DNA of 64,000 nt from positions 81,404 through 145,403 of the forward strand of contig CALSNB010000001.1 in the NCBI GenBank assembly GCA_943787605.1. Reading direction: 5' to 3'. The stretch comes from an uncultured Rhodobacteraceae bacterium. GTDB lineage: Bacteria; Pseudomonadota; Alphaproteobacteria; Rhodobacterales; Rhodobacteraceae. Positions 2,412-34,526 of this stretch are shown here, piece by piece. Position 1 is the stretch's first letter; every line of letters starts with the position of its first letter. The notes beneath the pieces were generated by a model. That model saw nothing but the letters and a program-made list of their open reading frames with translations. It was not told the DNA's origin and did not search any database. A program made the position numbers and the translations under genes.

Positions 2412-3413
2412 ATGATGAAATTTATATATTTTAAGCTAGTATTAGTGGTTGGCCTGTTAGCTTCGCCCACATTTGCCGCGGAAGAGTATTTAGCCCGAAT
2501 ATCAGGCCATTGGTCACCTACACACCAGAGTGCTATCCACTCACAACTTTTTGCTGACGAAGTAACAAAAAGATCAAATGGAAGATTAAAAGTTGAGTTT
2601 TACCCCTCAAAACAACTCTTTGATATTAGGAGTGTAATGGGTGGTGTTACTTCAGGAGCCGTGGAAATGGGCGGTATAGTAGGAGTTGTAAGTTTTCCAA
2701 AAATTAATAAAAACTTTAGTGTTGCATCGTTTCCAGGGTTGTTTGGGTCTTACGATGAGCAAAGACGGTTTTTCTTAGAAGATAAGACAGGTAGTGAAAT
2801 ATGGAATAATATTACTAAAAAAAGTAATACAAAACTCATTATGTATAATCCGGTTGGTCCGATTATGACCTTTAGTGGTGCACGAGAGTTAACTGGGATA
2901 GACGTAATGAAGGGTCTTAAAGCAAGAGCGCTTTTAGGAAGTGAAAGGCCAATGTGGAAAGCAATGGAAGCGTCTATTGTCTCTTTGAAAACAGGTGAGG
3001 TTTATACAGCGTTACAAACTGGGATGATTGACACAATCAATACTCCTCCGGGAAGCGTTGAGGCTTACAGCTGGTGGGAACATCTTAAGTATGCTCAAAA
3101 ACCGTACCAGTATTATGCTGATGCATATATTATGGCAAATGCAACTTGGTTTGATAGCTTGCCAAAAGATCTTCAAGATCTTCTTATGACTGTTGGTGCA
3201 GAGATAGGTAAGAAGGCAACAGATACAATCTTTGACGCTGGTGAAAATTCTCTTAAGAAATTCCAAGCAATGGGTGGGATTGTCACGACACTAAGTGGTG
3301 CAGAGAAAGCTAAGTTCGATAAACTGATGAACGAGGTTGTTTTACCAGACATGGCGGATCAGTTCGATGCAAGCGCTTTGAAAGCGGCACAAGCTTTTGT
3401 AGCTAGTCAGTAA
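2412..3413 (+). CDS. TRAP transporter periplasmic solute-binding protein (DctP family)
   Basis: GGGAGG ribosome-binding site, signal peptide MMKFIYFKLVLVVGLLASPTFA, size of about 330 aa, and DctQ/DctM-type genes immediately downstream. Confidence 0.85.
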   Translation: MMKFIYFKLVLVVGLLASPTFAAEEYLARISGHWSPTHQSAIHSQLFADEVTKRSNGRLKVEFYPSKQLFDIRSVMGGVTSGAVEMGGIVGVVSFPKINKNFSVASFPGLFGSYDEQRRFFLEDKTGSEIWNNITKKSNTKLIMYNPVGPIMTFSGARELTGIDVMKGLKARALLGSERPMWKAMEASIVSLKTGEVYTALQTGMIDTINTPPGSVEAYSWWEHLKYAQKPYQYYADAYIMANATWFDSLPKDLQDLLMTVGAEIGKKATDTIFDAGENSLKKFQAMGGIVTTLSGAEKAKFDKLMNEVVLPDMADQFDASALKAAQAFVASQ

Positions 3414-3423
3414 GATATAACAA

Positions 3424-3455
3424 ATGGCTCCTCATAGATTGAGGGGCCATTTTTA
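3424..3455 (+). terminator. intra-operon stem-loop plus T-run between the TRAP binding-protein and permease genes (partial terminator or mRNA stabiliser)
   Basis: atggctcctc (3424-3433) pairs with gaggggccat (3441-3450): 10 bp with one G-U pair and a 7-nt loop, followed by ttttt. Confidence 0.6.
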
Positions 3456-3460
3456 TAAAC

Positions 3461-3982
3461 ATGATTAATTTTTTTTTAAAGCCTTTAGAGAAATTTAACA
3501 AAATTGTCTCCCAATGTGTTTTTGCTTTAGCGACAACTCTTATTGGATTGATTGTTCTTGCGCTGACAATGAGTGCGGTGACAAGATATGTTTCAGGTAA
3601 TGGCTATGACTGGTTTATTGAGTTACCTCCAGCTATGGTTACCTGGTTAGTCTTTCCTCTGCTAGGTCCTTTATTTAAGTCTGGGCAACATATATCTGTA
3701 GATTTTGTAACCGTTTTTCTAAATAAGGCACAGGTATCCTTTCTAAAATTTTTAACTCATATTACAGCTTTCATAGCAGCCATAATTTTCACTCAGGCTG
3801 GGATAGAAGCTACCCAATTATTCATACAACTAGGTGAAACGATGGAATTAGAAATAGAGATTCCGGTTTGGTGGATTTATTTGGCGTTCCCTGTTGGTTT
3901 TATTATTTTGGGCTTAATCTCGTTGGAATTAATACTGTTGGATATTAAAACATTTTTTTCAAAAAGTTTTGGGAACCTTTAA
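3461..3982 (+). CDS. TRAP transporter small permease (DctQ family)
   Basis: 173 aa with four hydrophobic helices, located between the binding-protein and large-permease genes. Confidence 0.8.
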   Translation: MINFFLKPLEKFNKIVSQCVFALATTLIGLIVLALTMSAVTRYVSGNGYDWFIELPPAMVTWLVFPLLGPLFKSGQHISVDFVTVFLNKAQVSFLKFLTHITAFIAAIIFTQAGIEATQLFIQLGETMELEIEIPVWWIYLAFPVGFIILGLISLELILLDIKTFFSKSFGNL

Positions 3983-3985
3983 AAT

Positions 3986-5254
3986 ATGTATATATTTTCT
4001 TTAGCCTTATCGACTTTTTTTCTAGCCATATCTTTACCAATATTCTTAGTTTTTGCTATTGGTAGTTCTGTTGCAGCGATTTGGGGACTTAATTTACCGT
4101 GGTCTACTCTTATACAAATCTCATTTCAAGCGTTAGCAAAGCATGTATTGATTGCGGTCCCCTTATTTATTTTTGCTGGAATGGCAATGTTACGCGGTGG
4201 TGCAGCATCAAGGTTGGTATCGTTTGCAACGGCTTTGGTAGGCCATTGGCCTGGTGGCCTGGGAATAGCAATGGTTATAGCAATGGGTTTCTTTGCTGCA
4301 TTTTGTGGATCTATCCTGGCAGCTATAACTGCAGTTGGCACAATTATGATGCCAAAAATGATCGAGCAAGGCTATCCTAAGCCTTTTGTTGTTGTGCTAG
4401 CAGCATCTGCTGCACTTTTGGAAGCACTTATCCCTCCTTCAAATGCAGCAATACTATTTAGTGCATTGACTAATGTTCCAGTGTCTCAAACTTTTGCTGC
4501 TGGTATTGTGCCAGGTCTTATTCTCTTGGTATTAATGATTGTTCTAGTTCTCATAAAATGTAGAAATATTAAGAGCCCAGAAAGGGTCTCTAATTATGGT
4601 AAGTTAACTGCTGGTATAAAAGCACTCCCAGCTTTGTTTACACCTATTATTATCCTTGGGGGTATATATGCAGGGCTCCTCACCCCTGCGGAGTCAGCGG
4701 CCGTTGCCGGGGTGTGGGCAATCATTATGGGAGCGGTTATCTATAGAGAGCTAACGATAAGCTCTTTAATTCTATGCCTTAGAGAAACAGCTTCAATTAC
4801 TGCAGTTATTTTCTCTATTATAGCTACAGCAACGTTCTTGAGTGTAGTCTTGACTTACACACAAGTTCCACAAAAATTAATTTTATATTTTACCGAGATG
4901 GGAGCTGGGATTTGGTTTTTTTGGTTATCTCTGGCCATAATATGTCTTATTTTAGGAACGTTTATTGAAATTGTACCAGTGTTTTATTTAACAGTTCCAA
5001 TTTTTGCTGCACTTATAATTTCGTTAAACCAAAGCTTATTGCATCTATATGTTGTTTTTGTTGCATTTGCAGGTATTGGGATGATCACACCACCCGTATG
5101 TGTTGGTATTTACACTTCAGCGGGTGTGATAAAAGAAAATCCAGGAAATGCTTTTAAAGAGGTGCCATTGTTCGTCTTTGTAGGAATAATATATGGAATA
5201 TTAATGATTATATTCCCGGCAGCATCAACATGGTTGCCAAATGTATTACGATGA
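3986..5254 (+). CDS. TRAP transporter large permease (DctM family)
   Basis: 422-aa polytopic membrane protein starting 3 nt after the DctQ stop. Size and hydrophobicity pattern are typical of DctM. Confidence 0.85.
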   Translation: MYIFSLALSTFFLAISLPIFLVFAIGSSVAAIWGLNLPWSTLIQISFQALAKHVLIAVPLFIFAGMAMLRGGAASRLVSFATALVGHWPGGLGIAMVIAMGFFAAFCGSILAAITAVGTIMMPKMIEQGYPKPFVVVLAASAALLEALIPPSNAAILFSALTNVPVSQTFAAGIVPGLILLVLMIVLVLIKCRNIKSPERVSNYGKLTAGIKALPALFTPIIILGGIYAGLLTPAESAAVAGVWAIIMGAVIYRELTISSLILCLRETASITAVIFSIIATATFLSVVLTYTQVPQKLILYFTEMGAGIWFFWLSLAIICLILGTFIEIVPVFYLTVPIFAALIISLNQSLLHLYVVFVAFAGIGMITPPVCVGIYTSAGVIKENPGNAFKEVPLFVFVGIIYGILMIIFPAASTWLPNVLR

Positions 5255-5337: not shown

Positions 5338-6357
5338 ATGCACAAAAATATCTTAACTGGAGAATGGAAAGTATCAGATTTAAATATAAAAAAAGACTGG
5401 ATCTTCGAGCTTCAAGAAAATGATCAAAAGGAGCTTATAGATGCAACCAATCAAGCTATTAAATCAAAAAAAGAATTATTCGATCTTAAAGCTTCTGATT
5501 TCCCATTAAATAAGTTCAAAAAGAAAATAGACTTAGCAAAGCATCAACTCGGAAAAGGTTTAGGTTTCGCTATATTGCGAAACTTACCAATTAAAAACTT
5601 TAGTGATAATGATGTGAAAATAATGTTTTGGGGTATTGGACAGTATTTTGGGTTTCCTGAACCTCAAGATAAAGCGGGTTCACTACTCCACGTGGTTACT
5701 GATACAGGCGCCACAGTAAAAAATTCAGATAACATTAGAGGCTTTCAAACCAATCAAGAACTACAGTTTCATACTGACGGAGGCGATGCCTTTGGGCTTC
5801 TATGCGTTCGGCCTGCAAAAAAAGGAGGCCTTTCAAAACTTGTGTCTTCTGTAGCTATCTTCAAAGAGATAGAAAGGTTACGTCCAGATTTGGCGCATGA
5901 ATTACAAGAAAATTTTCATTTTGATACTCGCGCCCAAAATCCTAATGAAAACAAATCCCAAAATGTTCCAGTATTCATAAAACATGACGGTTTGGTTTCG
6001 GCCCTATACAAAAGACAATATATTGAAACAGCGCAACGGTTTTCGGATATCCCTAAGTTGACGACAAAACAGATCGAGGCACTTGATATGGTTGATAGTC
6101 TTTGCAACGATGCAGAGTTCTGCTTTGATATCAAATTAAAACCCGGGGATATGGAAATTGCAAATAATGCTACTACCTTTCATTCACGTGAAAACTACCA
6201 GGACTACGACGATATTAATAAAAGACGTTGTATGCTAAGGCTATGGCTTTCGCTTTATGATGGTCGTCCACTTCCAGATGCATATGAGGATACACGAGAA
6301 TGGGCTGCAACGTTCCAACGTCGAAAAGAGATTAAGAATTTCATCAAACCTATTTAA
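5338..6357 (+). CDS. TauD/TfdA-family Fe(II)/2-oxoglutarate dioxygenase (paralog 2)
   Basis: GGAGAGG ribosome-binding site, FHTDGGDAFGL (His-x-Asp), distal His in TTFHSRE, and an RLWLS...RPLP tail collinear with 990-2060. Confidence 0.8.
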   Translation: MHKNILTGEWKVSDLNIKKDWIFELQENDQKELIDATNQAIKSKKELFDLKASDFPLNKFKKKIDLAKHQLGKGLGFAILRNLPIKNFSDNDVKIMFWGIGQYFGFPEPQDKAGSLLHVVTDTGATVKNSDNIRGFQTNQELQFHTDGGDAFGLLCVRPAKKGGLSKLVSSVAIFKEIERLRPDLAHELQENFHFDTRAQNPNENKSQNVPVFIKHDGLVSALYKRQYIETAQRFSDIPKLTTKQIEALDMVDSLCNDAEFCFDIKLKPGDMEIANNATTFHSRENYQDYDDINKRRCMLRLWLSLYDGRPLPDAYEDTREWAATFQRRKEIKNFIKPI

Positions 6358-6583: not shown

Positions 6584-7003
6584 ATGATTGAGAACTTTAA
6601 TAACATATACTTATTTTTACTTTTTATTTTTGCCTGTATTTTTACTCCGGGCTTTTATGCCGCCGCGCAACTTTGGGAGTCTAAAAAGGTATTGGAAAGG
6701 TATGGAATTGACGAGTCTGCGACATTAATTGCCAGATTTGCTGCATGTTGGCCCACGGCAGAAGCTTTGGTGGCTTTGTTAATACTTTTTATAGGTCCCC
6801 AAGGTAACTGGGCATTTTTCACGTTTGGTGTTATTGTTTTTGGTGCCAGCACAATTTACAATACTTTGTCATATTTCAATATAGCTTTAACTCTGGGACG
6901 CGGTAAATATAAAGTTTTACCTGAGGCAATGTATGCCTCAATATTTAAGTTGGCTGTATATTTAATATTATTAATTTCTTTATCTGATAAGTTATTTTTG
7001 TAA
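6584..7003 (+). CDS. four-helix integral membrane protein of unknown function
   Basis: 139 aa with four hydrophobic segments and AAGGAA upstream. Same strand as the LuxE-like gene and 50 nt before it. Confidence 0.5.
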   Translation: MIENFNNIYLFLLFIFACIFTPGFYAAAQLWESKKVLERYGIDESATLIARFAACWPTAEALVALLILFIGPQGNWAFFTFGVIVFGASTIYNTLSYFNIALTLGRGKYKVLPEAMYASIFKLAVYLILLISLSDKLFL

Positions 7004-7053: not shown

Positions 7054-8388
7054 ATGAATGGTGCTTTTAATGGTTTTGGAATTCCTCAAGATTTAAAAAC
7101 AGAGGACTCCACAATAAAGAATGATCCATACTTATTAAAACTAAGGGAGATCTTATCACAAGAAAATATTATGAATGAATATACTCAGGAAAGAACTTCA
7201 AGCCTTCAGCAAGAACTCTTATATCCGTATCTCAATTTTTTCTTAAGAAACGATAAAAATGATTACTATAAAAAATTATTTTTTTCACGAGGTTTAACTG
7301 AAGATGAAAATGGTTCACTAAAAGAGGGTCTTGTTTTATCAGATTTGATTAAATTAAGGATTCACTCTGATGATTTACGCGGAGACGGTCAAGAAATAAG
7401 ACGGATTGAGCATTTCCCTGATAAAAGCTACGGGATGAATTTTATGTCCAGTGGTACTACCAAGGGTACTAATGGTCCTGTGAATTTATATAGATCAAAT
7501 ATTTCCCTTGACCTGTCGAGAAAGACTAATGGAAACCTAATTGATTGGTCTCTTGGAAAGAAGATAGATGGTGGTGAGTGTTTGTTCCATATGGCACCAG
7601 AGATGACTAATTTCCTCGCCTTTGCAGCAATCGGCTCTGACTTTTTACGTGACAGGGGTCTAAAAGTAGGTTTTGGAGCAAAAATTAAAAATGGCCCCAA
7701 GGACTCTACAATATGGCAACGCATTGGTCCAAATATCAAAGAAATGAGAAAGTTCTTTAAGAGTAAAAACCATACAAAATACTTTATTGCCAGTGGAGTT
7801 GGTCTATATAAAATGTTTATGGAACCTAAAGGTATTAAGGGTCTCATGATGAAATTATCTTTAGGGGCTCCACCTGTATATTTAGGCAAGCACGGTGTCT
7901 TAATGATTGGTGGTGGACTAAAACGTTTACCCCGTGAAATTACCTCATTAAGCCAAGTTGTCAAATCAACAAGCGATAAAATATATCTTGAAAAAAATGG
8001 TAAAAGTACTCCAGCACCTGTTATTGACATGCTTGGTCTTACTGAGTCTGGCAATGTTTTTATAGGCTTACCTAATGATCCAAACTCAGAGGAATCATGG
8101 GCAAAGTATCCACACCCTTTATCATATACGGCTTTATTAAATTCACCAAATGACCTTACACCGGTAAAAAATCCAAAAGCCGGTAAAGAATATCTATTAT
8201 TTTATGTTAATTTTGCTACCCTTGATTATATAGAGGCTATTATCCCAGGAGATTTTGTTCTTCCTGCAAATGACACACCAACAATAAAAACTATTATGGG
8301 AGAACGTAACATTTCTCAAAGAGGTTTCATATACTCTCGTAGAGCGGAGGTAGATGAGGGTTTCAAAATACGAGAAGGTTGTGGATGA
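7054..8388 (+). CDS. LuxE-like acyl-protein synthetase (adenylate-forming enzyme)
   Basis: Phosphate-loop-like FMSSGTTKGTNGP, LGLTESG, a GD...RR...KIREG C-terminal region, and a penultimate Cys (REGCG end). LuxE is acylated on a Cys near its C-terminus. The stop overlaps the start of a LuxC-like gene. Confidence 0.6.
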   Translation: MNGAFNGFGIPQDLKTEDSTIKNDPYLLKLREILSQENIMNEYTQERTSSLQQELLYPYLNFFLRNDKNDYYKKLFFSRGLTEDENGSLKEGLVLSDLIKLRIHSDDLRGDGQEIRRIEHFPDKSYGMNFMSSGTTKGTNGPVNLYRSNISLDLSRKTNGNLIDWSLGKKIDGGECLFHMAPEMTNFLAFAAIGSDFLRDRGLKVGFGAKIKNGPKDSTIWQRIGPNIKEMRKFFKSKNHTKYFIASGVGLYKMFMEPKGIKGLMMKLSLGAPPVYLGKHGVLMIGGGLKRLPREITSLSQVVKSTSDKIYLEKNGKSTPAPVIDMLGLTESGNVFIGLPNDPNSEESWAKYPHPLSYTALLNSPNDLTPVKNPKAGKEYLLFYVNFATLDYIEAIIPGDFVLPANDTPTIKTIMGERNISQRGFIYSRRAEVDEGFKIREGCG

Positions 8389-9788
8389 TAAGATTTTTAT
8401 CAAAAGGAAAGAAAAATAAAAAAGTATGTTTGAATGAGACGTTTCCATGGTTAAATTCTATAGAAAAAAATAAGCTAGAACAAAAGAAAGAGAAGTTTTC
8501 TTCTAGATTAAAAGATTTTAAGAAATCAGATAATTATGTAAAAACTGATTCATGGAAAGATCTACTAATTGAATTTAAGGCTGGCCTGTTAGAGGCTGGT
8601 TATCCTAAATATGCCGCTGATTTAGAGCTAGAGTTACTGGCTGAGTTATTTAACCCTGATACAATAAATAGTATCTTTTCAAATCCAAGTAATAGCTTTT
8701 ATAAATCGATAGAGAATGATGTTTTTGTCGATGAACAGAAATTTTCGGTTAATTATAGGTTTATGAGGTCACCGAAAGGTTTGGTCTTCATTGTTGGAAG
8801 CTCAAACACTATATTGCCAGTAATATTAGCGATTATGTTATCTTATCTTTGTGGTAATATAACTGTGGTTCAGCTTTCCAACCTCCATCAGAAAATTATC
8901 CCAAATTTTTTTAATAGATTACCACATTTTAAGAAGAATTGTATATATTTCACGAATTTAAACCAAGGTGTTGACAACGATCGAGATCAACTTACTGACC
9001 TAATATCAACAGTCGACTGGGATATAATAAATGTTTGGGGCGGTGAGGAAGCAAACGATTTTTATTATTCAACTTCACGTAACAATAAATATAGACCTAA
9101 AGTCTTAACCATGGAGCCCCTGACTGGCGTAACACTGATACAAGCAAAATACCTCAAGGAAAACCGAGGGGTACTAGCAAAAGACCTTGCTGAAGCGATT
9201 ACTATAATGGGGCAACAACTTTGCAGTTCCCCCACTGAGGGGTACATAATTGGAGATATAGAAGAACCTTTAAGGAGAGAATTTTTTTTAGAGCTAATTA
9301 AACAGATTGAAGAAAATTATCAATTTCATAATACGGCAGAAGCAAATGCCATCAAATTAGATAGAGCCTTAACTAAAGCTAACGATTCTGGGTCGAGGGT
9401 TTATACATCACAAAAATATGGGAGCCTTATCTCAATTATTAACAGTGATGATCAGTCATTTTTTATAAAAACAGATTTAGATATTAACCTATCAATACAC
9501 AATCGAAATAACTTTTTAGAATTAATAAATATTAATTCGTTTGAAAATGCATACGAAACTGTCTCACAAATAAGTGATAAAGTAACACATGATCAGATAA
9601 AAAAAATCCAAACAATCTTGGTTTTTGGGGATAAAGATTTTTGGACCGAGGCTATTAACTTAGCAAAAGTTGTTGGTGCTTACCGAGTTATAGATCTTAA
9701 CTATGTCTTAAAACGTCACCCTTTTGAGCCCTTAGACGGGATTCATTTAATAGAAGAGTTTACATATCCAATTGCTATTCTAGATTAA
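8385..9788 (+). CDS. LuxC-like acyl-CoA/acyl-protein reductase (ALDH superfamily)
   Basis: ATG 8385 overlaps the upstream TGA (ATGA). Shows FIVGSSNTILPV...VVQLS and a candidate catalytic Cys in GQQLCSSPTEG, as in LuxC-type reductases. The track start at 8379 is TTG. Confidence 0.6.
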   Translation: MIRFLSKGKKNKKVCLNETFPWLNSIEKNKLEQKKEKFSSRLKDFKKSDNYVKTDSWKDLLIEFKAGLLEAGYPKYAADLELELLAELFNPDTINSIFSNPSNSFYKSIENDVFVDEQKFSVNYRFMRSPKGLVFIVGSSNTILPVILAIMLSYLCGNITVVQLSNLHQKIIPNFFNRLPHFKKNCIYFTNLNQGVDNDRDQLTDLISTVDWDIINVWGGEEANDFYYSTSRNNKYRPKVLTMEPLTGVTLIQAKYLKENRGVLAKDLAEAITIMGQQLCSSPTEGYIIGDIEEPLRREFFLELIKQIEENYQFHNTAEANAIKLDRALTKANDSGSRVYTSQKYGSLISIINSDDQSFFIKTDLDINLSIHNRNNFLELININSFENAYETVSQISDKVTHDQIKKIQTILVFGDKDFWTEAINLAKVVGAYRVIDLNYVLKRHPFEPLDGIHLIEEFTYPIAILD

Positions 9789-9893
9789 AATACTTTTATG
9801 TTAATATAAAAAATTTTTAGTTTGATACTGCTTACTTTTTTTTGTATTGGATAAGGTGGAATATGCTGAAAAAGATAATTTTAGGAGTTAAAA

Positions 9894-10592
9894 ATGACCA
9901 CACAATTAAACCCAACCGATTTGGTTGGAATGAGTTTTTGGATTATTTCCGCTGCCATGGTTGCCGCAACCTTCTTCTTTTGGGTTGAGAGAGATCGTGC
10001 TGTTGGAAAATGGAAAACATCGTTAAGTGTTGCGGCTATGGTAACAGGTATTGCTGCGATTCATTATTTTTATATGAGAGGAGTATGGGCCGAGACTGGA
10101 GCTTCGCCACTTGTATATCGTTATGTAGACTGGCTATTAACAGTGCCTCTTCAAATAATTGAATTCTACTTGATTCTAGCAGCCATTGCTGTTGTTGGAG
10201 CAGCGTTATTCTGGAGGTTGATGATTGCTTCAGTAGTAATGCTTGTTGCTGGTTATCTGGGCGAAATTGATGCAGTAAACGTATGGGGAGCTTTCATAGT
10301 CGGTATGGCCGCATGGATTTACATAATTTATGAGATCTTTGTAGGTGAAGCTAGCAAGATAAGTGCTGAAAACGGTACGGCTGCAAGTAAGACTGCGTTT
10401 AATGCTTTAAGAATTATTGTTACAGTTGGCTGGGCAATATATCCTCTTGGATACGTATTAGGTTACGGTGGTGCAGGTAGTCCTGATGCACTTAACATAA
10501 TATATAACCTAGCAGATTTTGTTAACAAAATTGCATTTGGTGTAGTAATATGGGCCGCAGCAACGTCTAGCTCGGCTACGGAAACTGCCTAA
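9894..10592 (+). CDS. proteorhodopsin (light-driven proton pump), blue-tuned Gln variant
   Basis: RYVDWLLTVPLQIIEF carries the D/T/E pump motif (D79, T83, E90 here; D97/T101/E108 in GPR numbering) with Gln at the L/Q spectral-tuning site. Schiff-base Lys is in ADFVNKIAFG (K212), and His is in IHYFYMRGVW. AGGAG ribosome-binding site. Confidence 0.95.
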   Translation: MTTQLNPTDLVGMSFWIISAAMVAATFFFWVERDRAVGKWKTSLSVAAMVTGIAAIHYFYMRGVWAETGASPLVYRYVDWLLTVPLQIIEFYLILAAIAVVGAALFWRLMIASVVMLVAGYLGEIDAVNVWGAFIVGMAAWIYIIYEIFVGEASKISAENGTAASKTAFNALRIIVTVGWAIYPLGYVLGYGGAGSPDALNIIYNLADFVNKIAFGVVIWAAATSSSATETA

Positions 10593-10620
10593 ATCTATAA
10601 GTAAAGTTAAACTTTTAAAA

Positions 10621-10658
10621 TGTAACGGCGGTCTATAATGATCGCCGTTACATATTTT
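10621..10658 (+). terminator. rho-independent terminator after proteorhodopsin
   Basis: tgtaacggcg (10621-10630) pairs with cgccgttaca (10643-10652): a perfect 10-bp stem with a 12-nt loop, followed by tatttt. Confidence 0.8.
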
Positions 10659-10735
10659 AAAAGTCATTTATAATAATACTAGCGTCAGTTTAGTCATGCA
10701 TTATAATTTTAATATATTGAGTAGAGTTTAGAAAA

Positions 10736-11251
10736 CTATCTGTTTTCGAGGAAATGGTAAGCCTCTAGGATAGTAGCGACTAATCCATCAAAAAAATCTG
10801 GGACAGTCACGTCAACCAGGCTAGTGCCTTGGTATGTATTATCGGTGCTGTTCCCCTCACTTGATTTTAAAGTAAAAAGACAGTTTGGAGAATTTAGTAA
10901 CTCCCGATAGCTTTTACCTTTACCATGCTTTAGCACATTTATCGCTAGATAATATTGGTGAACTCTGTCTGCAAGATTAGTTTTTTGGGACTCTAATAGT
11001 AATGATTTCAACTTCCGTGGAAATGGGCCGCGTCTAAAGTGGTTTTGCATTCGCACCTCAAAAATAGAGAGTGTATCGACAGCTACTGACTCAAGCTTTT
11101 TAGTCATTGTTTGAAGTTTTTGAATTTGAGTGTCTGAGCTATTCTGTTTCTCCATAAGTTCCAGTATTTTTAAAATACTAACTTCCAATGTCTTTGCATC
11201 TTTTTTTGCGGCCATAATAAACTCGAGTACGCTTTGCGAATTTTCCATCAT
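10736..11251 (-). CDS. hypothetical cytoplasmic protein with no recognisable domain
   Basis: 171-aa ORF with AAGAGGA 5 nt upstream of ATG. Predicted helical, contains KHGKGKSYRELL. Convergent with the rhodopsin gene. Confidence 0.5.
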   Translation of the reverse strand: MMENSQSVLEFIMAAKKDAKTLEVSILKILELMEKQNSSDTQIQKLQTMTKKLESVAVDTLSIFEVRMQNHFRRGPFPRKLKSLLLESQKTNLADRVHQYYLAINVLKHGKGKSYRELLNSPNCLFTLKSSEGNSTDNTYQGTSLVDVTVPDFFDGLVATILEAYHFLENR

Positions 11252-16784: not shown

Positions 16785-18479
16785 TTATCCTGTGACGAGA
16801 GCTCGTGCGATCTGCACATTTGAAAGAAGTCTGTTTAAACTGCGAGTTGCCAGCCCTTGGCGTAATCGCAATGCATCTGCACTTCTAGTTTCCCCTGCAA
16901 GATTACGGATTGCCTCGAGGCTAGGCCATTTTGGTAATGGCAGCGCTGGGTCATGACTGTGTTGGTCACCATAGGTGTAATCCAAAGGTACAAGCTGTCG
17001 AGATACTAGCATAAGAGTCCGGTCTCGTTTTAAGTAGGCCTCAGGGCTTTCGAGCTGCTGTTCTTGGAAACTCACCATTTCTTTGTACAATCCTTCAACT
17101 TCAGTATGCAGAGCACTCAATGAGAGATCACACTCTGATGACAATTGGATTTCAGCTATATTAGAAAGTAAATCTGCTACTTGTGCTGCAATGTTTAGTG
17201 GCAGGTACAGATCTGAAACTAGATGGCCCAATGCATGTGCATAAATTTGTGTATCACGCAAAAGGAATGCTGGGTTAATACGTTCAATTTTGTCATAAGG
17301 AGTGTGCCACCACCATCCTAAGGCATTACGCACTCCAACAGTTTCAGTAGGTTGACAGCTTAGGATACCAAACAGTGAGGGGATGCCAATTCCCCAAAAA
17401 GACTGGTCTGAATTACGTGCCATGCGATTGCCGTCATAATCTTGTCCTGAATGTTTCTTAATTACTTCTTGAGCAAATTCTGATAATTCAGTAGCGGCTG
17501 GTGCCGTACTGAGAAGGGTGTTTCCCTCGCCACCTGTTGAATCTACGTTTACGTGCACTGCACAGTCGCGGTGTCCAACTCATGCCAATATTGATCAGCA
17601 AACCACGTTGATCCCTGAATACCTTCCCTGCGAGTGCCCAGACCAAAAACACAAACGCAAATGACGCTTCATGGCATTCCGATTTTTTGCCATACAGCGA
17701 GTCACTTCCATCATTGTCGCATTAGCACTACCATTATCCATCACACCCTCATACCAAGTATCATGGTGCCCAGAAAATAGTATGTAAGGTGCATCTTTAA
17801 GAGCATTTTTTGCTTCGAGATCAGCAATTAAAATTGGAGTCTTTCGCCACCCTGTGTCGACCTTGGCGTGGATGGTAGCTGGTAGGGCAGGTGTTATTGT
17901 TAGTTGCTCTCGTATTATTTTGCCGTCTTCATCTGATATAGTCACAGCAGATGAAGTTGGAAGGTTTTTTACTGTCTCAGAATCAGGGTTTCCCCAAACT
18001 GGAGAAAGACACATTTCATGAAGGTACTCATGTGGGCTAATGTGAATTTGTCCTACTGCGCCTGCGTGCCGACAACGTTTTGCCATTTCTGGGGTCGCCA
18101 TGCCGTCAATTAGAACAATCTGATCGCGTACATCTGTAGCATCAAAGGTTTCTTGAGATGCTGAGCCGAGGTCAATAATTTTGCGTGTCAGACCAGCTTC
18201 AGATGTGGGTAAGGCCATTGAGTGAGTAATTGCCTTAAATCGTTTTCCATTAAAATCTAAGTGAGCTGCTTCTGGCAGACTTATGAAGGCATCGTGATAG
18301 AGTAAGGTCGTTTTTAAACCGTAGCTATTTAGAACACCGCGTATATAGTTTAAGCTTTGTGCTTCCTCTGTAGTCCCGGCCAGTTTTTTCCAGCGAGAAA
18401 ATTCTTGCAGATGCTCCATCATCTGGTCTGTTGAAATCTCTGAGATCAAATTGTTCAAAAACTTTGTATTAACTTTCAT
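16785..18479 (-). pseudogene. M28-family (PA-domain) metallopeptidase disrupted by two compensating frameshifts
   Basis: Track ORFs 17595-18479 and 16785-17558 are in the same frame, separated by two in-frame TGA codons (17595-17597, 17580-17582). The interval reads as GSTWFADQYWHELD in another frame. M28 motifs FSGHHDTW...DNGSA and HVNVDSTG lie on either side. Confidence 0.8.
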
Positions 18480-23509: not shown

Positions 23510-24436
23510 TTAGTCAGATCTATAAACGCTGCGCATAATGATTGGGGTCAAATACATTGGGATTTGATAACAACCTAAGAATATCAGTAATTGTTCTGAT
23601 TGCATTATTGGCAGGGCTATTAAAAACAAAGCAAAATTTCGATTGCCTGCAACAATCCCAATTGGAACGGCCAGGTCTGGATATCCTAATACCCGCATCA
23701 CATGGAATCCTATAAATTGGAGTCCAAGGTTTACAAAAAGTGCGAAGCCTAACCACTGAACTACAGACAAAGGATCGGAAACGATTGCCGGCCTCAACGC
23801 AGCCATAAGACCGACAACCATAAATGCAAGTGTCAATGTCATGAGCCCATCCAGCGCGACTGTTCGATCATTATCAAGCTTTGGTAAGATTAGGGCACGA
23901 AGTAAAAAGCCACTAAAAGCAGCAAAGATTATTGTTCCTAAAAGGTAAGCAGAAGCTGAAAAAACATATGTGAGTCCACCTAGTTCTGGGATAACCCAAA
24001 AAATAGGAATTACCGTTATGGGTAAAAGGGCTGTTCCTAATATCAAAGCTTGAAAAGTTGGTTCTGGTTGAGCACCTAAAAGAATTGAGAAGTTTGGTGC
24101 ACCTGTGATTGATGGAGCCGCAAGTATTAAAACTAAAGCAATAGCAAAGATAGAAGAGGAAACTCCAAAGTAACTGAAAACTCCCAAAGCCAATAATGGT
24201 AAGACAAGCTGAAGAGTCAGAACTGTTGTTATTAGTTGTGATGCTCTTTGAAAACTAAATATTACCTTTTGATGTCCAGTCCGAAATGCGGTGAAAAATA
24301 ACAAAAGAGCAACCATTTGAGGAAGGAAGTTTTTCAAAATGGCAGCGGCTCCAGGAAAACCAAAGCCAGCGATTAATCCAGCAACAAGGATATATCTTCC
24401 ATAAGCCGCAGCAAATATGAATAATCGCAACACCAT
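23510..24436 (-). CDS. SBF-like / bile acid:Na+ symporter (BASS)-family transporter
   Basis: 308-aa polytopic protein. The AAPSITGAP and VAGNRNFALFLIALP segments resemble the two BASS signature regions. Confidence 0.6.
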   Translation of the reverse strand: MVLRLFIFAAAYGRYILVAGLIAGFGFPGAAAILKNFLPQMVALLLFFTAFRTGHQKVIFSFQRASQLITTVLTLQLVLPLLALGVFSYFGVSSSIFAIALVLILAAPSITGAPNFSILLGAQPEPTFQALILGTALLPITVIPIFWVIPELGGLTYVFSASAYLLGTIIFAAFSGFLLRALILPKLDNDRTVALDGLMTLTLAFMVVGLMAALRPAIVSDPLSVVQWLGFALFVNLGLQFIGFHVMRVLGYPDLAVPIGIVAGNRNFALFLIALPIMQSEQLLIFLGCYQIPMYLTPIIMRSVYRSD

Positions 24437-24756: not shown

Positions 24757-25713
24757 ATGAAAGGCTTTGATAAAAGGTTCTCAGATCTACCAGATTATAT
24801 TTTGAAATGCACAGCGCAGATCTGGGAAGGTCGTGATATTGCGGCACTTGATTGGCATTACTCTGATGATCTTTTGGTGAGATCTCCCGCTGGGATAAAT
24901 CGAGGAAACACCTCAGGAAAGTCCAATACAATGGCAACTCTTTCAGAGTTTCCTGATCGTGAACTCTTCGGAGAGGACGTTTTGTGGTGTGGGGATGAAG
25001 AGATTGGGTTTCTTTCTTCTCATCGTATATTTTCAACTGCGACGCATCATGGTGGAGCTTTTGGTCAGGCAACTGGGCTGAGGGTATCCTTTCGCACTAT
25101 TGCAGACACATACTGTTATAAAAATCGTGTGTGGGATGAGTGGCTCATCCGTGATAATGCCGCTATTGCACTTCAGCTTGGACAGAATGCAAAGGATGCA
25201 GCAATAGCAATGATTAATAGGGGGGATAGAGATACGCCCTTAACCCCGACCAATGACGTAGTAGGGCCTTATAAAGGTTCTGGAAATACTGAAGAATGGG
25301 GCGAGCGACACGCAACTATACTCAGACAGATTATGACTGCTGATTTTTCGGTTATAAAAGAGGAATATGATAGAGCCTGTCATCTGTCTCTTCCTGGTGG
25401 ACAGGAAGTACATGGGTGGAGTGAGGCGGATAAATTTTGGATTGGATTACGGAGCGCTTTTCCTACTGCAGAATTCAAGATTGATCATCAGATGGGTTGC
25501 GTTGATCCATTGCTCAGCCCACGTAGTGCTATACGTTGGTCTCTGACGGGTTCCCATGACGGTTGGGGTAGATATGGATCTCCTACGGGCTCAAACGTTC
25601 ACATTATGGGTGTCAGCCACGTGGAGTTCGGACCTTGGGGATTACGTAGAGAAGTTACTCTGTTCGATGATATTTCAATCTGGAAACAGATTTTGCTTCA
25701 AACTGGACTGTAA
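24757..25713 (+). CDS. tandem SnoaL/NTF2-fold protein, type A (predicted ester cyclase-like), copy 1
   Basis: 318 aa made of two NTF2-like halves. Collinear paralog of 28746-29714 (MKGFDKRFSDLPDYIL versus MKGFSDRFSNFPDYIL; shared C-terminal GVSHVEFGPWGLRRE). Confidence 0.7.
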   Translation: MKGFDKRFSDLPDYILKCTAQIWEGRDIAALDWHYSDDLLVRSPAGINRGNTSGKSNTMATLSEFPDRELFGEDVLWCGDEEIGFLSSHRIFSTATHHGGAFGQATGLRVSFRTIADTYCYKNRVWDEWLIRDNAAIALQLGQNAKDAAIAMINRGDRDTPLTPTNDVVGPYKGSGNTEEWGERHATILRQIMTADFSVIKEEYDRACHLSLPGGQEVHGWSEADKFWIGLRSAFPTAEFKIDHQMGCVDPLLSPRSAIRWSLTGSHDGWGRYGSPTGSNVHIMGVSHVEFGPWGLRREVTLFDDISIWKQILLQTGL

Positions 25714-28745: not shown

Positions 28746-29714
28746 CTATCCTTTTTTTAGTGCAATTTGTTTCCAAATTACAGTTTCATCAAATAAGGTA
28801 TATTCACGTCTCAGGCCCCAAGGCCCAAACTCTGCATGACTTATCCCCATGACATGAACGTCTGCACCTGTAGGCTGACCAAAAGTACCCCAGCCATCAT
28901 GTTTGCCGGTTAGACTCCAGCGAAGGGCCGCGCGTGGTGACATCTGAGGATCATCGCGACCAATCTGATGATGAATTTCAAATTTGGCAGAGGGGAATGA
29001 AGATCTTAACCCAATCCAAAATGCATCAACTCCATCAGTTGATACGAGTTCTTTCCCACCAGGGTAATAGCCAGTGATCGCGCGATCATATTTCTTGGGT
29101 ATTACGTTGAAATTTGCTGACATGATTTTAGTTAAAATTTCAGAATATTTGTCACCCCATGCATTATTGTTACCACGACCAGTATATGGGCCTACTTTAT
29201 CAATTGATGGGTGAAATGGCTTAACACATTCTGCTGGCCCACCCTCATCTTCAATCTGTTTAAGTGCATATTGGTATGGGTCCCAACCCATCTGGCGTAC
29301 AATTGCTCCTTGATCACGGATCAACCATTCATCATTGATTTGATTATTTATTGCATGACAATCTGCTACTATCCGATATTTTATAACCTTTCCTGTTGCT
29401 TTTCCGTATACACCATCACCAAGATGAGTGGCTGTCGACAAAATTCGATGTGACGATAACATTCCGTCTTCTGGGGTCCCAGACCAGATAACGTCTTCAC
29501 CCAGCAGACGTCGATCTGGGAATTCGGCGAGAGTTGCCATGGTCGCACCAATTACGTTCGCATTACCAATAACAAGAGATCCTGGAGATCTTACAATAAT
29601 ATCATTAGAATAATATGCATGTAGTGTCCCTATTCCACGGTCTTCCCAAATCTCTTTAGTAATCCCTAGTATATAGTCAGGGAAATTAGAAAAACGGTCT
29701 GAAAAACCTTTCAT
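28746..29714 (-). CDS. tandem SnoaL/NTF2-fold protein, type A, copy 2
   Basis: Paralog of 24757-25713. ATG 29714-29712 forms an ATGA overlap with the LacI-gene stop. An alternative start at 29723 would add MEH. Confidence 0.7.
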   Translation of the reverse strand: MKGFSDRFSNFPDYILGITKEIWEDRGIGTLHAYYSNDIIVRSPGSLVIGNANVIGATMATLAEFPDRRLLGEDVIWSGTPEDGMLSSHRILSTATHLGDGVYGKATGKVIKYRIVADCHAINNQINDEWLIRDQGAIVRQMGWDPYQYALKQIEDEGGPAECVKPFHPSIDKVGPYTGRGNNNAWGDKYSEILTKIMSANFNVIPKKYDRAITGYYPGGKELVSTDGVDAFWIGLRSSFPSAKFEIHHQIGRDDPQMSPRAALRWSLTGKHDGWGTFGQPTGADVHVMGISHAEFGPWGLRREYTLFDETVIWKQIALKKG

Positions 29715-30727
29715 ATGCTCCATCCTTTCGGAACTTTTGCTGATCCTCGAATAATTAATGGACTAGATATTTTTATATGTTTTGAGGTAACTTTAGGATC
29801 ACGAATTTTTTCTAACATTAAACGCACAGTTTGGTCTACCATCAAATTCGATCTCTGCCGTAGAGTCGTTAAGTTGTAAGCGGCCCATGATGCTGGTGGA
29901 ACATCATCATACCCAATAACACTTACATCATTTGGAATACTTAGGGCTAGCTCTGAACGTAGAACATCCATCACAGAGAACGCCATATGATCGGTCGCTA
30001 CAAATATTGCATCTGGCTTTGTCGGTCCAACAAACATTTCACGAGTAACTCGTTTAGCAGTGTCTGTTGAAAAGTTACCTAAGGCATGTGAAAAGAGACT
30101 TATGCCTGCCTTTTTTAAACCAGCACGAAAACCGGCTTCTCGATCACGTTGAGTGGAAGCTCCTGCCCAACCACCGATATAGGAAATACGTTCGTGTTTT
30201 GCTTCGCACAAAAACCTTGCCGCAGTCTCCCCACCTAGAAAATTATCTGATGTTACGGCACTATGAGAAACTCTGTCTTGAGTACGGTTAAATAACACAA
30301 CAGGGACACCTGCCATCTCACAACGCGCCGTTATATCATTTGAAATACCAACACTTGCAGTTATAATCCCATCAACTTGGTAGTCGAGAAGTTCTTCAAT
30401 TACTTGTTCTGTGGATTGATCATCATTTGATGCCATGAAAACTAGGACATGATAACCTTGCGCTTTGAGAGAGTTAGATAATTTTTCGAGGGCTGCTGGA
30501 TAGAAATAATTGTCTAGATAAGCAACAACAAGCCCGATTATACGACTTTTCCCAGTGATCAGAGAACGCGCAAGAACATTTGGCCGATAGCCCAACTCTT
30601 GGGCAGCTTCTCGAACTTTTAAGACGGTTTTATTGCTTGCTGAGGCACCAGGAGTAAAAACTCTACTCACAGCTGACTGGCTTACACCGGCGCGTTTTGC
30701 GACTTTTAGAGCTGTAACTTTATTCAT
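29711..30727 (-). CDS. LacI-family transcriptional regulator
   Basis: N-terminal helix-turn-helix VTALKVAKRAGVSQSAVSRVF, followed by a periplasmic-binding-protein-like sugar-binding core of 338 aa. Confidence 0.9.
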   Translation of the reverse strand: MNKVTALKVAKRAGVSQSAVSRVFTPGASASNKTVLKVREAAQELGYRPNVLARSLITGKSRIIGLVVAYLDNYFYPAALEKLSNSLKAQGYHVLVFMASNDDQSTEQVIEELLDYQVDGIITASVGISNDITARCEMAGVPVVLFNRTQDRVSHSAVTSDNFLGGETAARFLCEAKHERISYIGGWAGASTQRDREAGFRAGLKKAGISLFSHALGNFSTDTAKRVTREMFVGPTKPDAIFVATDHMAFSVMDVLRSELALSIPNDVSVIGYDDVPPASWAAYNLTTLRQRSNLMVDQTVRLMLEKIRDPKVTSKHIKISSPLIIRGSAKVPKGWSI

Positions 30728-30742: not shown

Positions 30743-31790
30743 TCATGATGCTACCTCACTCATGATTGGAATAGAGCCAGTTGCTCGTGCTTTATTAAAA
30801 GTCCGCATTCTTCCAAGGACATCTACTCCCAATTGCCGATATACATCTAATAAATCTACCAATACCCAGTTCTCACGAATTTGACCGCGCTCAATACGCC
30901 AAAAATCTAGACTTCGCAGTGTTATCATACGGCCACTCGGTGCGATACCCATCCATCCATCGTCACTAAGGGTTTGCTTCATATTCGGCCAACCAGTAAC
31001 AGCTACATAAGGCCCATCTGCAAAAAAATGATAGGTTAACTCATCTCGGAAACTACCACGATCTGGCATTCCCATGAGAAACGGCATTTGATGCCAATTG
31101 CGAAAGCCCGAGATGCCACGAGCCTGTGCCGATCCCAGCGGGTCCATACCAGTTCATTTTTGGATGCCAATAGCGAGGCATTTCCATTGCTTCCTGAGGT
31201 TCTTCAGGATGCTTACTCATAGCTGTTAGCATGTCAATCACAAGTGTTTTAGACTTAGTTGATACATCGTGTTGATAATCCCCTGTCTGCAACCCATCAC
31301 ATGTTGCAGGCCCTGGTATTAAGCCTTCTCGGCCAAGACTTGGGGCCATTGGCCAAGCACCTGCTTGCATCATCAGCTCAGGGATATCCCAAATTGCCTG
31401 TATTTCAATAATTTTTTCATTTTTAATTTTGTAATACTCGTGGAACCTCATATGGGCTAAATGGCCTGTGGGTTGAATGTCAAGGAAAGGCTTAACGAAA
31501 GTTCCAATATAAGTACCTGCAATCCCAACCCAATCATCCCCATGATCATCAGTTCCTGCCATTATGATCCAAGGTCGTTTTTCAACATCTGGTAATGAAA
31601 AGTGCAATTTCGCTAGAACGGATTCATAATATTGATCGCCTGGCATATCTCCAAATGGATGACACATATGGACAACCATATCTTTTGCCATGATGGCATT
31701 TAGCTCTTTGCGTACACCTTCCTCTGACCAGTTATACATTGCAGCGTTCAATCCTGCAGTAAGGGTCCGAAGGTCGGATAAATCCGTCAT
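30743..31790 (-). pseudogene. tandem SnoaL/NTF2-fold protein, type B, frameshifted
   Basis: Track ORFs 31053-31790 and 30743-31147 together are collinear with the intact 333-aa paralog 38139-39140. The reading frame switches right after ...NWYGPAGIG, near 31120-31127. Confidence 0.7.
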
Positions 31791-33115
31791 TTGATAGTTT
31801 CCTTATGAGGTGCTGACCCACCATATGGAATATTTACGCCACCATAGCGACGCACCCGCAGATTACATTGTTCTGCATGCCCCACAAATCCTTCTAGAAG
31901 GCATAACCGAGAGCCATAAGCTCCAATTTCAGCAGCGGCCTTATCAGTCGTAATTTTCTGGTAACTATGGGTTTTGAGAAATTTCCCTACCCAGAGTCCA
32001 CCAGTATATCGTCCAGCCTTTTTTGTTGGCAACGTATGGTTTGTGCCGATAACTTTATCACCATTGGAAACATTCGTCCGTGCACCTAGAAATAATGCCC
32101 CGTAACAAGTCATGTGCTCTAAAAACCAATCATCCCGATCAGTCATTACTTGGACGTGCTCTGACGCGATATCATCAGCAATCCTTAGCATTTCTTCATA
32201 GGTATCACAGAGGATCACTTCGCCATAATCCTCCCAAGATTTTCCGGCAGTGTCAGCTGTAGGGATAATTTTTAAAAGGCGATTAATTTCCACGATAGTA
32301 GCATTTGCCAATTTCTCTGAGTTGGTAACTAGTACGGCAGGTGAGTTGTAGCCATGTTCTGCTTGCCCCAGAAGATCAGTAGCACATAGTTCAGCATCAA
32401 CCGTATCATCAGCAATTACCATAGTTTCTGTTGGGCCAGCGAATAAATCAATGCCAACGCGACCAAATAATTGACGTTTTGCCTCAGCCACAAAAGCATT
32501 ACCAGGACCGACGAGCATGTGTACAGGTTCAATTGTTTCAGTCCCAATTGCCATTGCACCAACAGCTTGAATGCCACCCATTACATAAATTTCATGCGCA
32601 CCCCCAAGATGCATTGCAGTTATAGCTGCAGGGTTTGGTTTGCCGTTGAAAGGAGGAGTACAAGCAATAATCCTCGGTACACCTGCAACAGAAGCTGTTA
32701 ATACAGACATATGCGCTGAAGCAACCATTGGGAATTTTCCGCCTGGCACATAACAACCAACTGATTGTACGGGAATATTTTTATGACCCAAAATAACACC
32801 TGGCAGCGTTTCGATTTCAATATCTAGCATACTTTCTCGTTGGGCTTGCGCAAAGTTTCGTACCTGCTCTTGTGCAAATTTTATATCAGCTAGCTCTCGG
32901 TCAGAAAGTGTTGCCATAAGATCTAAAATTTCTTGATTGGTAAGTTTAAAGTTTTGAGGGTTATAACTGTCAAATTTGACAGAAAGATCCCGCACCGCTC
33001 TGTCACCTCGTGTTTCTATATCTAATAATATCTCTTCAACAATAGATTTTGTCTTGGCATCATCTTGTGCACGTTCTTCGTCTGGTTTTCCACGCTTCAA
33101 GTAGGTTATAGCCAT
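31787..33115 (-). CDS. histidinol-dehydrogenase-family NAD-dependent (amino)alcohol dehydrogenase
   Basis: 442 aa with [13 protein letters not shown] and GTNHTLPT motifs of the HisD fold. It sits in a catabolic operon rather than a his operon. Confidence 0.85.
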
Positions 33116-33648
33116 TACTCTCTCCTAATTTTAGATGATATTTTTTCTTTTGAGTCAAACGCTTCCCAGCCGTGACCATTGAAGACATCTACGCCGAGTT
33201 GCATGAGTACATGGGGAAAATCCACCATTACCCAATTATCAATAATTTTTCCATTTTCTACTTTCCAAAAATCCATGTATCGGATTTGAATTTTTTTATT
33301 GGTAGGTTTTACACCCATAAAAACACCACTATGAATAGCTTCTTGTCTTCCAAAAGCGGCGGCCCATTCACCCATATAGAGCCGTGCCTCATCAATACAA
33401 ACTTTTTCTGAAAACGCTGCTTGAAATGGCTTTTGCCAGTTGTCCTGAAATGCCCGTATTCCATCTTTTGTGCCACAACCCGTGTTACCCATCCAACGGA
33501 AACTTTCATTAAAAAACTCGCCAATATCAACAATTCGGTGATCATTCAGGCCGTCAACCATATTTTCGATTACCGCGCGTGTCTCCTCTGTTTTTGACAT
33601 ATCCGTATCTTTACTCAGATATGCTTGCTCTGGTCTTGCTCCACTCAT
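33115..33648 (-). CDS. single-domain SnoaL-like (ester cyclase-like) protein
   Basis: NTF2-like pattern with [19 protein letters not shown]. An ATGA overlap with the upstream permease stop supports the start at 33648; an alternative ATG lies at 33600. Confidence 0.7.
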
Positions 33649-34526
33649 CCTTTTACTGCTCCTGCTGTAAGACCGCTTACAATCTGACGTTGAAAAAACA
33701 TTACTAAAATAAATAATGGTGCAGTTGCAGAGACTACTGCCGCGACAGCGAACATAACATTACCTTCAACTTGTGTGGTGCCTAAAAAGCTAGCAATTTT
33801 TGGAACCATTGTTTGATTACTATTGTTCAACAATGTAGCTGTTACGGTGAAATCATTATAAGCAAGTAAAAATGAAAATAGCCCTGTAGTAATTACACCT
33901 GGCCACATTACTGGCACGATAACGCGTCTAAATGCTTGAAATCTAGTGCACCCATCAACCATTGCACTCTCATCTAGATCTTTAGGAATATTAAGAAAGA
34001 AACTATGCAACATCCATAATGTAAACGGTTGATTGATGGCAACCATAACGATTATGGCAGTTGGTAAATGCCCCCATAGGTTCCATTCGAAAAAAGGTAG
34101 TAAGTAACCTGATACTAACGTAATGTGTGGCATTGCTCGAAATACTAAGGCTAACATCAAAAGGTAGAACGCGTATTTCTTGCCTGAGCGGGCCAATGCA
34201 TAGCCGCCCAGAGTCCCTAATGTGAGTGATATTATGACTACTGAAACCACAACAATCATGGTATTTAATGCCGCTTGCCAAAAAGACTTAGTAATCCAAG
34301 CACCATGATAACCATCACCTGTAAAGGATGAACCAGTTTCGATTTGAGTGCGTAACCCACTTATTGCATATGCCCAGTCTGCCTTTGAGAAGAAGTCGCC
34401 TTGGACTTTAAAGGAGCCCCACATAGTCCACAAAAAGGGGAAACCCGCCAGCATAATCCAAAACAAAACAAAAACCCAAATTAGAGCAGTAAACGATTTT
34501 GAACGTCGGTGAATAAGCTCAGACAT
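33645..34526 (-). CDS. ABC transporter permease (CUT1 family, MalG-like)
   Basis: 293 aa with six TM helices and an EAA-loop-like DESAMVDGCTRFQAFRRVIVP. Confidence 0.85.
   Translation of the reverse strand: MSELIHRRSKSFTALIWVFVLFWIMLAGFPFLWTMWGSFKVQGDFFSKADWAYAISGLRTQIETGSSFTGDGYHGAWITKSFWQAALNTMIVVVSVVIISLTLGTLGGYALARSGKKYAFYLLMLALVFRAMPHITLVSGYLLPFFEWNLWGHLPTAIIVMVAINQPFTLWMLHSFFLNIPKDLDESAMVDGCTRFQAFRRVIVPVMWPGVITTGLFSFLLAYNDFTVTATLLNNSNQTMVPKIASFLGTTQVEGNVMFAVAAVVSATAPLFILVMFFQRQIVSGLTAGAVKG

Follow-up and report, generated by a model that had tools for sequence, protein, structure and literature searches.

A stretch of DNA from an uncultured Rhodobacteraceae bacterium (GenBank assembly GCA_943787605.1, contig CALSNB010000001.1, positions 81,404 to 145,403, forward strand) was analysed around a row of four genes; its full length of 64,000 nucleotides (nt) is referred to here as the window. 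A gene for an orphan membrane protein (mem139) and two open reading frames (ORF1 and ORF2), predicted to encode a LuxCE-type pair that would reduce a carboxylic acid to its aldehyde, lie directly upstream of a proteorhodopsin (PR) gene, which is followed by a stable hairpin (Table 1). The reductase pair and the rhodopsin gene had been picked out earlier from the sequence alone (the original prediction), and the reading frames were recovered with the same limits: ORF1 contains FMSSGTTKGTNGP and LGLTESG and ends in REGCG with Cys443 as its penultimate residue, ORF2 contains GQQLCSSPTEG, and the PR gene follows on the same strand at the distance given. The ATGA overlap reported for ORF1 and ORF2 was seen as ggATGAta, in which the TGA stop codon of ORF1 (8386-8388) overlaps the ORF2 ATG at 8385. 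An alternative ORF2 start (TTG at 8379) was present in the ORF listing; the start was placed at the ATG because all homologues begin at the equivalent position with M-I-R/K-F.

Table 1. Features of the mem139-ORF1-ORF2-PR locus (window coordinates).
Feature	Coordinates	Strand	Description
mem139	6584..7003	+	Orphan 139-aa membrane protein, four predicted helices
ORF1	7054..8388	+	444 aa; divergent LuxE-like adenylate-forming acyl-protein synthetase (predicted); proposed acyl acceptor Cys443
ORF2	8385..9788	+	LuxC-family acyl-thioester reductase (predicted), aldehyde dehydrogenase (ALDH)-like; candidate Cys280
Spacer ORF2-rhodopsin	9789..9893	+	105 nt, AT-rich, terminator-free
Proteorhodopsin (PR)	9894..10592	+	DTE proton-pump type (predicted); Gln at spectral-tuning position (blue-absorbing type); Schiff-base Lys
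Hairpin	10611..10664 (core 10621-10658)	unassigned	A-run and U-run flanks; likely terminator

Ratios of nonsynonymous to synonymous substitution rates (dN/dS) were determined against a 96%-identical relative and amounted to 0.03 for mem139, 0.07 for ORF1 and 0.12 for ORF2; on these values, all three are real genes under purifying selection. The exact PR and ORF1 proteins were found on contigs of up to 1.9 Mb, in records from metagenome-assembled genomes (MAGs) labelled Rhodobacterales/Paracoccaceae. The organism is abundant and marine; the identical PR protein was present in 302 blocks of the public collection.

ORF1 had no Pfam or NCBIfam match at E ≤ 0.1. The Pfam LuxE model (PF04443) matched neither ORF1 nor any of the 34 aligned relatives (alignment A1), even at E ≤ 10, and direct assignment of ORF1 to LuxE by Pfam or NCBIfam was rejected, with no match at any threshold. 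Within A1, the SSGTT P-loop, GGGLK and GLTE were invariant and Cys443 of REGCG was kept in at least 90% of the sequences. A sequence search of the PDB with the ORF1 family profile gave no match, and no ORF1 homologue was found in the plasmid collection. When 1.84 billion representative proteins were searched exhaustively with HMMER, only 66 clusters (about 15 of them full length) were recovered at E ≤ 1e-3, so that the ORF1 family is of small size and has sharp limits. The AlphaFold (AF2) model of ORF1 had a predicted local distance difference test score (pLDDT) of 88 and a predicted template modelling score of 0.89, with a disordered tail (residues 441-444, pLDDT below 50). Its best PDB matches in Foldseek were PaaK-like short adenylate-forming (ANL) ligases (E ~1e-10, template modelling score (TM) ~0.55), and ORF1 is confidently predicted to adopt the PaaK-type ANL fold.

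Since no family model matched directly, the relation of ORF1 to LuxE was drawn via this fold, a bridging homologue and a natural fusion protein. The bridging homologue, the distant family member P0078, aligned with the A1 profile at E = 2e-49 and 100% probability in hhalign. The alignment pairs the ...RACGG of P0078 with REGCG of ORF1, cysteine on cysteine, and P0078 is the sole family member above the PF04443 threshold (27.4 bits, cut-off 24.9). The fusion protein, P0090 (884 aa, metagenomic), joins an ORF1-type domain (residues 5-380, ending in RPGCGA) to a LuxC domain (residues 422-754, 72 bits), followed by about 130 C-terminal residues without assignment. The cysteine of the ORF1-type domain is preserved exactly at the domain junction. 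By these comparisons, the ORF1 family is a new and unannotated sister family of LuxE, which lies outside the Pfam LuxE family.

ORF2 matched the LuxC model (PF05893) with 42.9 bits (cut-off 21) over profile positions 72-399 of 401, and its homologues on other contigs carried the same precomputed LuxC annotation. The motifs MGQQLCSSPTEGY (with Cys280), GSxN, WGG and MEPLTG were invariant over 15 homologues with identities down to 25% (alignment A2). ORF2 is accordingly classed, by its sequence, as a LuxC-family reductase, and the position of Cys280 within its motif suggests that this residue is the equivalent of the LuxC catalytic cysteine. The proposal of a LuxE/LuxC pair could be upheld with the family models for ORF2, and for ORF1 in altered form: it fails the LuxE model itself, and is a divergent relative by its PaaK-type fold, the P0078 bridge, the terminal cysteine and the fusion. 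Homologues of ORF1 and ORF2 were adjacent in 34 of the 58 fetched loci (see below; loci are given as L with a number), usually with overlapping ends. Overlaps of 4-10 nt were found in L015, L017, L020, L054, L055, L057 and L058. From the ATGA overlap, ORF2 is predicted to be translationally coupled to ORF1.

mem139 belongs to no Pfam or NCBIfam family. Its AF2 model consists of four long helices (pLDDT 76), and a fold search against the PDB returned generic helical bundles only (E > 1). Homologues were confined to marine sequences and were all unnamed. Four marine clades have one close to the ORF1/ORF2 pair, placed or oriented in three different ways: upstream of both genes in the window clade and in a clade with 74% ORF1 identity, downstream on the same strand in L057, and downstream on the opposite strand in L035. 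Because mem139 stays near the pair despite such rearrangements, it can be argued to belong to the module, of which it would likely be the third component; the module then likely comprises three genes (mem139-ORF1-ORF2) and not two. The company of a membrane protein also hints at a membrane-associated, lipophilic substrate.

The rhodopsin matched PF01036 with 157 bits. In the alignment with bacteriorhodopsin (BR), RYVDWLLTVPLQIIE corresponds to D85/T89/D96 and FVNKIAFG to K216; with the motif D-T-E, Gln-105 at the tuning position and the Schiff-base lysine present, the protein is by its motifs a DTE proton pump of the blue-absorbing type. The hairpin behind the gene had a predicted RNA folding energy of -29.8 kcal/mol (z = -8.2), and none of 200 shuffled sequences was as stable. 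The fold of the spacer between ORF2 and the PR gene did not exceed shuffled sequence in stability (z = -0.84), in line with the earlier observation that the only convincing terminator lies 3' of the rhodopsin gene. The hairpin is thus likely the terminator that closes the unit. A promoter consensus scan of the spacer gave weak promoter-like matches only, no more than in shuffles, and the spacer was poorly conserved between the window clade and the 74% clade, the alignment containing no conserved promoter or regulatory motif, only AT-richness. Convergent with the PR gene lies a conserved gene of 171 aa (10736-11251, minus strand) without Pfam family at E ≤ 1, with which the hairpin is possibly shared as a bidirectional terminator.

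Genes for retinal and carotenoid synthesis were searched with a Blh profile hidden Markov model (HMM) built from 116 Blh proteins, which was run against six-frame translations of the window and the 58 related loci, and by Pfam annotation of essentially all window ORFs of at least 120 aa. The Blh profile found nothing in the window (best E = 1.7) or in the related loci, and no crtE/B/I/Y or RPE65/CCD gene was annotated in the window. The sole Lycopene_cycl match there was the FAD-binding N-terminus of a phenol-hydroxylase-type protein (61702-63591). Bac_luciferase (luxA/luxB) and LuxD-type families were likewise absent from the Pfam annotation of the window. The original prediction, which had noted no blh/brp, crtE/B/I/Y or luxA/B/D in the 64 kb, agrees with these scans. 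A bioluminescence (lux operon) function was rejected because luxA/B/D are absent from the window. In a protein database search with a Blh query, none of the 120 listed of 2388 matches fell on the 1.9-Mb contig with the exact ORF1 and PR proteins. The literature search yielded no paper that connects LuxC/LuxE-type genes to rhodopsins or retinal, and no account of the arrangement was found in papers on HTCC2255 and Roseobacter rhodopsins.

For analysis of the neighbourhoods, 58 loci were fetched from genomes and metagenomes with flanks of roughly 5-10 kb and grouped into about 17 lineages by ORF1 identity. A type-1 rhodopsin was directly adjacent to the pair in three of these lineages: the window clade, the 74%-identity clade and a Clostridia MAG. 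The MAGs JADHLM01, PAHC01 and GCA_028279945.1 (Clostridia) are among the genomes concerned. The 74% clade (MAGs labelled Hyphomicrobiales/Rhodobiaceae) carries the same mem139-ORF1-ORF2-PR block with different flanks on both sides. Adjacency in the two marine clades probably goes back to one ancestral event. In the Clostridia MAG (L015, JANQMT010000091.1), ORF1 (42% identity) and the LuxC gene are convergent with the rhodopsin gene (7503-8207, minus strand), whose product is 22% identical to PR. Because this protein has a DTS motif, proline at the position of BR D212 and the retained lysine, it was regarded as similar to Anabaena sensory rhodopsin (ASR) and xenorhodopsin. Its gene adjoins one for a 1037-aa PPDK_N/nucleotidyltransferase protein, and the Blh profile gave no match on the 14-kb contig. 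With the block recurring in a second marine clade and the adjacency in Clostridia having arisen independently, the association is not a peculiarity of the one genome in which it was first noticed. The chance probability that a rhodopsin gene comes to lie directly beside the pair twice independently in about 17 lineages was put, as a rough order of magnitude, at 1e-4 to 1e-2, assuming one rhodopsin gene per genome and allowing for clustering of mobile genes. Retention of the four-gene block was rejected as strong evidence: with two breakpoints among five junctions, the ORF2-PR junction survives by chance in 60% of cases.

A rhodopsin HMM detected no further rhodopsin in any of the 58 loci; heliorhodopsins were not searched for. 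The pair occurs without a nearby rhodopsin in SAR116, several other marine alphaproteobacterial clades, Spirochaetaceae, Actinomycetes and unclassified lineages, where its neighbours include NUDIX, YeeE, EamA, integrase, HSP20, ALDH and tripartite ATP-independent periplasmic (TRAP) transporter genes. Pseudonocardia sediminis, a soil actinomycete in culture, encodes an ORF1 homologue that UniRef names 'PaaK-like adenylate-forming protein'. In two unrelated lineages, the pair is preceded at a distance of a few kb by genes for phage-type integrases (four consecutive ones in L017, 3460-8286; one in L055, 4282-5376), which suggests that mobile or island DNA can harbour the two-gene module.

Upstream of the block, on the same strand as the pair, the window contains TRAP transporter genes (DctPQM, 2412-5254) flanked by two genes of TauD/TfdA-family dioxygenases (963-2060 and 5338-6357). 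The dioxygenases are 37% identical paralogues, and their best NCBIfam likeness was to trimethyllysine/gamma-butyrobetaine dioxygenases, far below the cut-offs. Their arrangement suggests an uptake and hydroxylation island for a quaternary amine or organic acid. In related strains, a divergent YdcZ gene lies between the TauD/TRAP genes and the block. The TRAP genes are broken in two near-identical contigs (L049 4036-5305, DctM of 253 + 175 aa; L052 4188-5304, DctP of 93 aa and DctM of 206 aa), which could be real decay or long-read assembly error. mem139-ORF1-ORF2-PR is intact in both contigs despite the broken TRAP genes.

Compared with LuxC-LuxE of Vibrio and Photobacterium (PF05893 and PF04443), the pair has the same adjacent two-gene layout of an adenylating synthetase with a near-C-terminal cysteine and an ALDH-like reductase, and the net reaction of the lux proteins (acid + ATP + NAD(P)H to aldehyde) is the one proposed for ORF1 and ORF2. 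The likeness is borne by the LuxC model match of ORF2 and, for the ORF1 family, by P0078. The acylatable cysteine of LuxE is located about 10-17 residues from the C-terminus, whereas that of ORF1 would be penultimate. Unlike in the lux operon, no luxD, luxA or luxB accompanies the pair in the window, the synthetase gene precedes the reductase gene with overlapping codons, an orphan membrane protein is present, and the associated protein is a rhodopsin instead of a luciferase. PaaK-type short ANL ligases (PaaK1/2 of Burkholderia, BT_0428 and 2-hydroxyisobutyryl-CoA ligase; Foldseek E = 1e-10 to 1e-7, TM 0.5-0.56 over about 410 aligned residues) have the P-loop and adenylate-binding motifs in common with ORF1, but identity is only 12-15%, without a sequence-level PDB match. 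In contrast to the ORF1 family, they use coenzyme A (CoA) as acceptor and have neither a C-terminal cysteine motif nor an obligate LuxC partner. Carboxylic acid reductases (CAR) of Nocardia and Mycobacterium, multidomain A-PCP-R proteins, reduce free acids to aldehydes with ATP and NADPH via a tethered thioester; the acyl group is bound to the phosphopantetheine arm of a carrier domain, and the reductase domain is of the SDR type. Here, the proposed arm would be the C-terminal cysteine of ORF1 itself, and the reductase is ALDH-like. Canonical PR photosystem clusters (crtEIBY and blh) likewise combine a DTE proton-pumping PR with genes that, in the present case, are possibly chromophore-related. 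They differ in that the window and the rhodopsin-adjacent loci contain no blh or crt genes, and in that the neighbours are reductive and not carotenoid-cleaving.

A LuxCE-type acid-to-aldehyde mechanism is well supported for ORF1 and ORF2, by analogy, because the P0078 bridge, the P0090 fusion, the near-universal adjacency of the two genes, their overlaps of 4-10 nt, the conserved terminal cysteine and the LuxC match all point to it. ORF1 would activate a carboxylic acid with ATP to the acyl-AMP and transfer the acyl group to the thiol of Cys443 on its flexible C-terminal tail. This swinging tail would hand the acyl group over to Cys280 of ORF2, which would reduce the thioester with NAD(P)H and release the free aldehyde; mem139 probably works alongside both proteins. 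We give about even chances to the module being a general reductase of lipophilic acids to aldehydes without proven dependence on the rhodopsin. A general function was favoured because the module is present in many bacteria that have no rhodopsin nearby. The most likely substrate would be an acid of lipophilic character that is processed at the membrane, for example a fatty acid converted to the fatty aldehyde. The PR gene would then have landed beside the module in an ancestor of this marine Rhodobacterales-like lineage. Several points weigh against this explanation. As ORF1 itself fails the LuxE model, its acyl-cysteine chemistry is proposed by analogy. Nothing in the data identifies fatty acids as substrates, and neither a LuxD-type acyl-transferase nor an obvious consumer of fatty aldehydes was found in the window. 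Finally, a merely coincidental placement beside the rhodopsin is strained by the independent adjacency in Clostridia, which involves another rhodopsin type and another orientation.

In the most specific alternative, retinal for the adjacent rhodopsin would be made by the pair from retinoic acid or from a related apo-carotenoic acid. Such salvage would serve a cell unable to cleave beta-carotene, or would recover retinal lost by oxidation, and mem139 would hold or pass the retinoid in the membrane; we consider it rather unlikely. The same doubtful standing is given to mem139-ORF1-ORF2 as an undescribed, oxygen-independent route to retinal that uses ATP and NAD(P)H in cells lacking blh. The class of product speaks for salvage, since an aldehyde is the only cofactor needed by the product of the adjacent gene, and so do the shared strand, the terminator-free 105-nt spacer with one strong terminator behind the rhodopsin gene, and the occurrence of the block between different flanks in two marine clades. 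The independent Clostridia pair beside an ASR/xenorhodopsin-like gene, the low chance probability estimated for the two adjacencies and the failure of the Blh profile to detect blh in the window or at any rhodopsin-adjacent locus point the same way. Moreover, rhodopsin-bearing prokaryotes that contain retinal without having blh or diox1 are documented, and their pathway is unknown (PMC7734400). However, in about 15 other lineages with the pair, including soil actinomycetes, there is no rhodopsin within roughly 5-10 kb, adjacency in the two marine clades probably stems from a single event in which retention of the block is statistically unremarkable, and the AT-rich spacer may hold a separate promoter for the rhodopsin gene. 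The negative results cover the window and the 58 loci for blh, and the window and the rhodopsin-adjacent loci for crt. A source of retinoic acid for these cells is not established, and the sequences bear no sign of retinoid specificity. It was judged at least as likely as retinal salvage that the module serves aldehyde or lipid metabolism unrelated to the rhodopsin and lies beside the PR gene by chance.

Two further explanations were weighed. The pair could convert a small carboxylate imported by a TRAP transporter to the aldehyde, the rhodopsin being a bystander. Carboxylate transporter genes are found near the pair in three lineages: in the window, in SAR116 (L004), where DctQ and DctM genes lie directly downstream of the pair with a DctP gene adjacent, and in the Clostridia MAG, where a GntR/FCD regulator gene is divergent from ORF1 with DctPQM behind it. 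The nearest structural relatives of ORF1 are ligases of aryl and short acyl acids (PaaK, BT_0428 and HCL), and an ALDH gene lies directly upstream of the pair in L054. We nevertheless regard this pathway as very improbable. TRAP systems are so numerous in marine alphaproteobacteria that the two marine co-locations are about what chance would give, and the 74% clade has mem139-ORF1-ORF2-PR with no TRAP genes nearby; for these two reasons the TRAP signal was rated below the rhodopsin signal. The divergent YdcZ gene separates TauD/TRAP from the block in related strains, the block is intact where TRAP genes are broken, and a membrane partner such as mem139 would be unexpected in a soluble small-acid pathway. 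An ordinary CoA-dependent pair, in which ORF1 is a CoA or amide ligase of the PaaK/GH3 type, ORF2 acts on acyl-CoA and Cys443 is no acyl carrier, would accord with the CoA ligases among the best PDB fold matches of ORF1, with the UniRef name of the Pseudonocardia homologue and with the Pfam description of PF05893 as 'acyl-CoA reductase (LuxC)'. There is little to recommend it in view of Cys443, which is conserved throughout most of the family at the extreme C-terminus on a low-confidence (flexible) tail, is kept at the P0090 junction and aligns with the cysteine of the LuxE-positive P0078. Obligate pairing, translational coupling and the fusion likewise point to direct hand-over and not to a diffusible CoA ester.

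To our knowledge, none of the known genes for retinal formation is present in many abundant microbes that bear rhodopsins, at least one of which nevertheless makes retinal by an unknown route (PMC7734400). If the module did form retinal, it would let cells without blh charge their rhodopsins, including the Clostridia lineage with its xenorhodopsin/ASR-like protein; because it would turn acids into aldehydes and lies beside rhodopsin genes in two phyla, it is a concrete candidate for unexplained retinal formation. Even if the retinal idea fails, the ORF1 family is a sister family of LuxE with sharp limits and no annotation so far, in which the terminal cysteine would act as a 'swinging arm'. 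Few biological reductases of acids to aldehydes are known, and they are of biocatalytic interest; the locus would add to them a natural fusion and a dedicated membrane partner, and P0090 would be useful as a single-chain construct for biochemistry.

Elsewhere in the window, SnoaL/SnoaL_2 ORFs are unusually concentrated between 24757 and 39140 (24757-25713, 28746-29723, 30743-31147, 31053-31790, 33115-33648 and 38139-39140). An ABC transporter (33645-37995), a LacI regulator (29711-30727) and a gene of the histidinol dehydrogenase family (31787-33115) are located among them. The ORFs 30743-31147 and 31053-31790 have 95 nt in common and each match SnoaL, so they may be one frameshifted gene. A Peptidase_M28 gene (16785-18479, minus strand) is represented by two ORFs in the window (16785-17558 and 17595-18479) and by a single 563-aa gene in the near-identical L049-L052; the split reflects either interruption of the gene or an error in the sequence. 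A conserved ORF of 308 aa (23510-24436, minus strand) matched no Pfam family at E ≤ 1.

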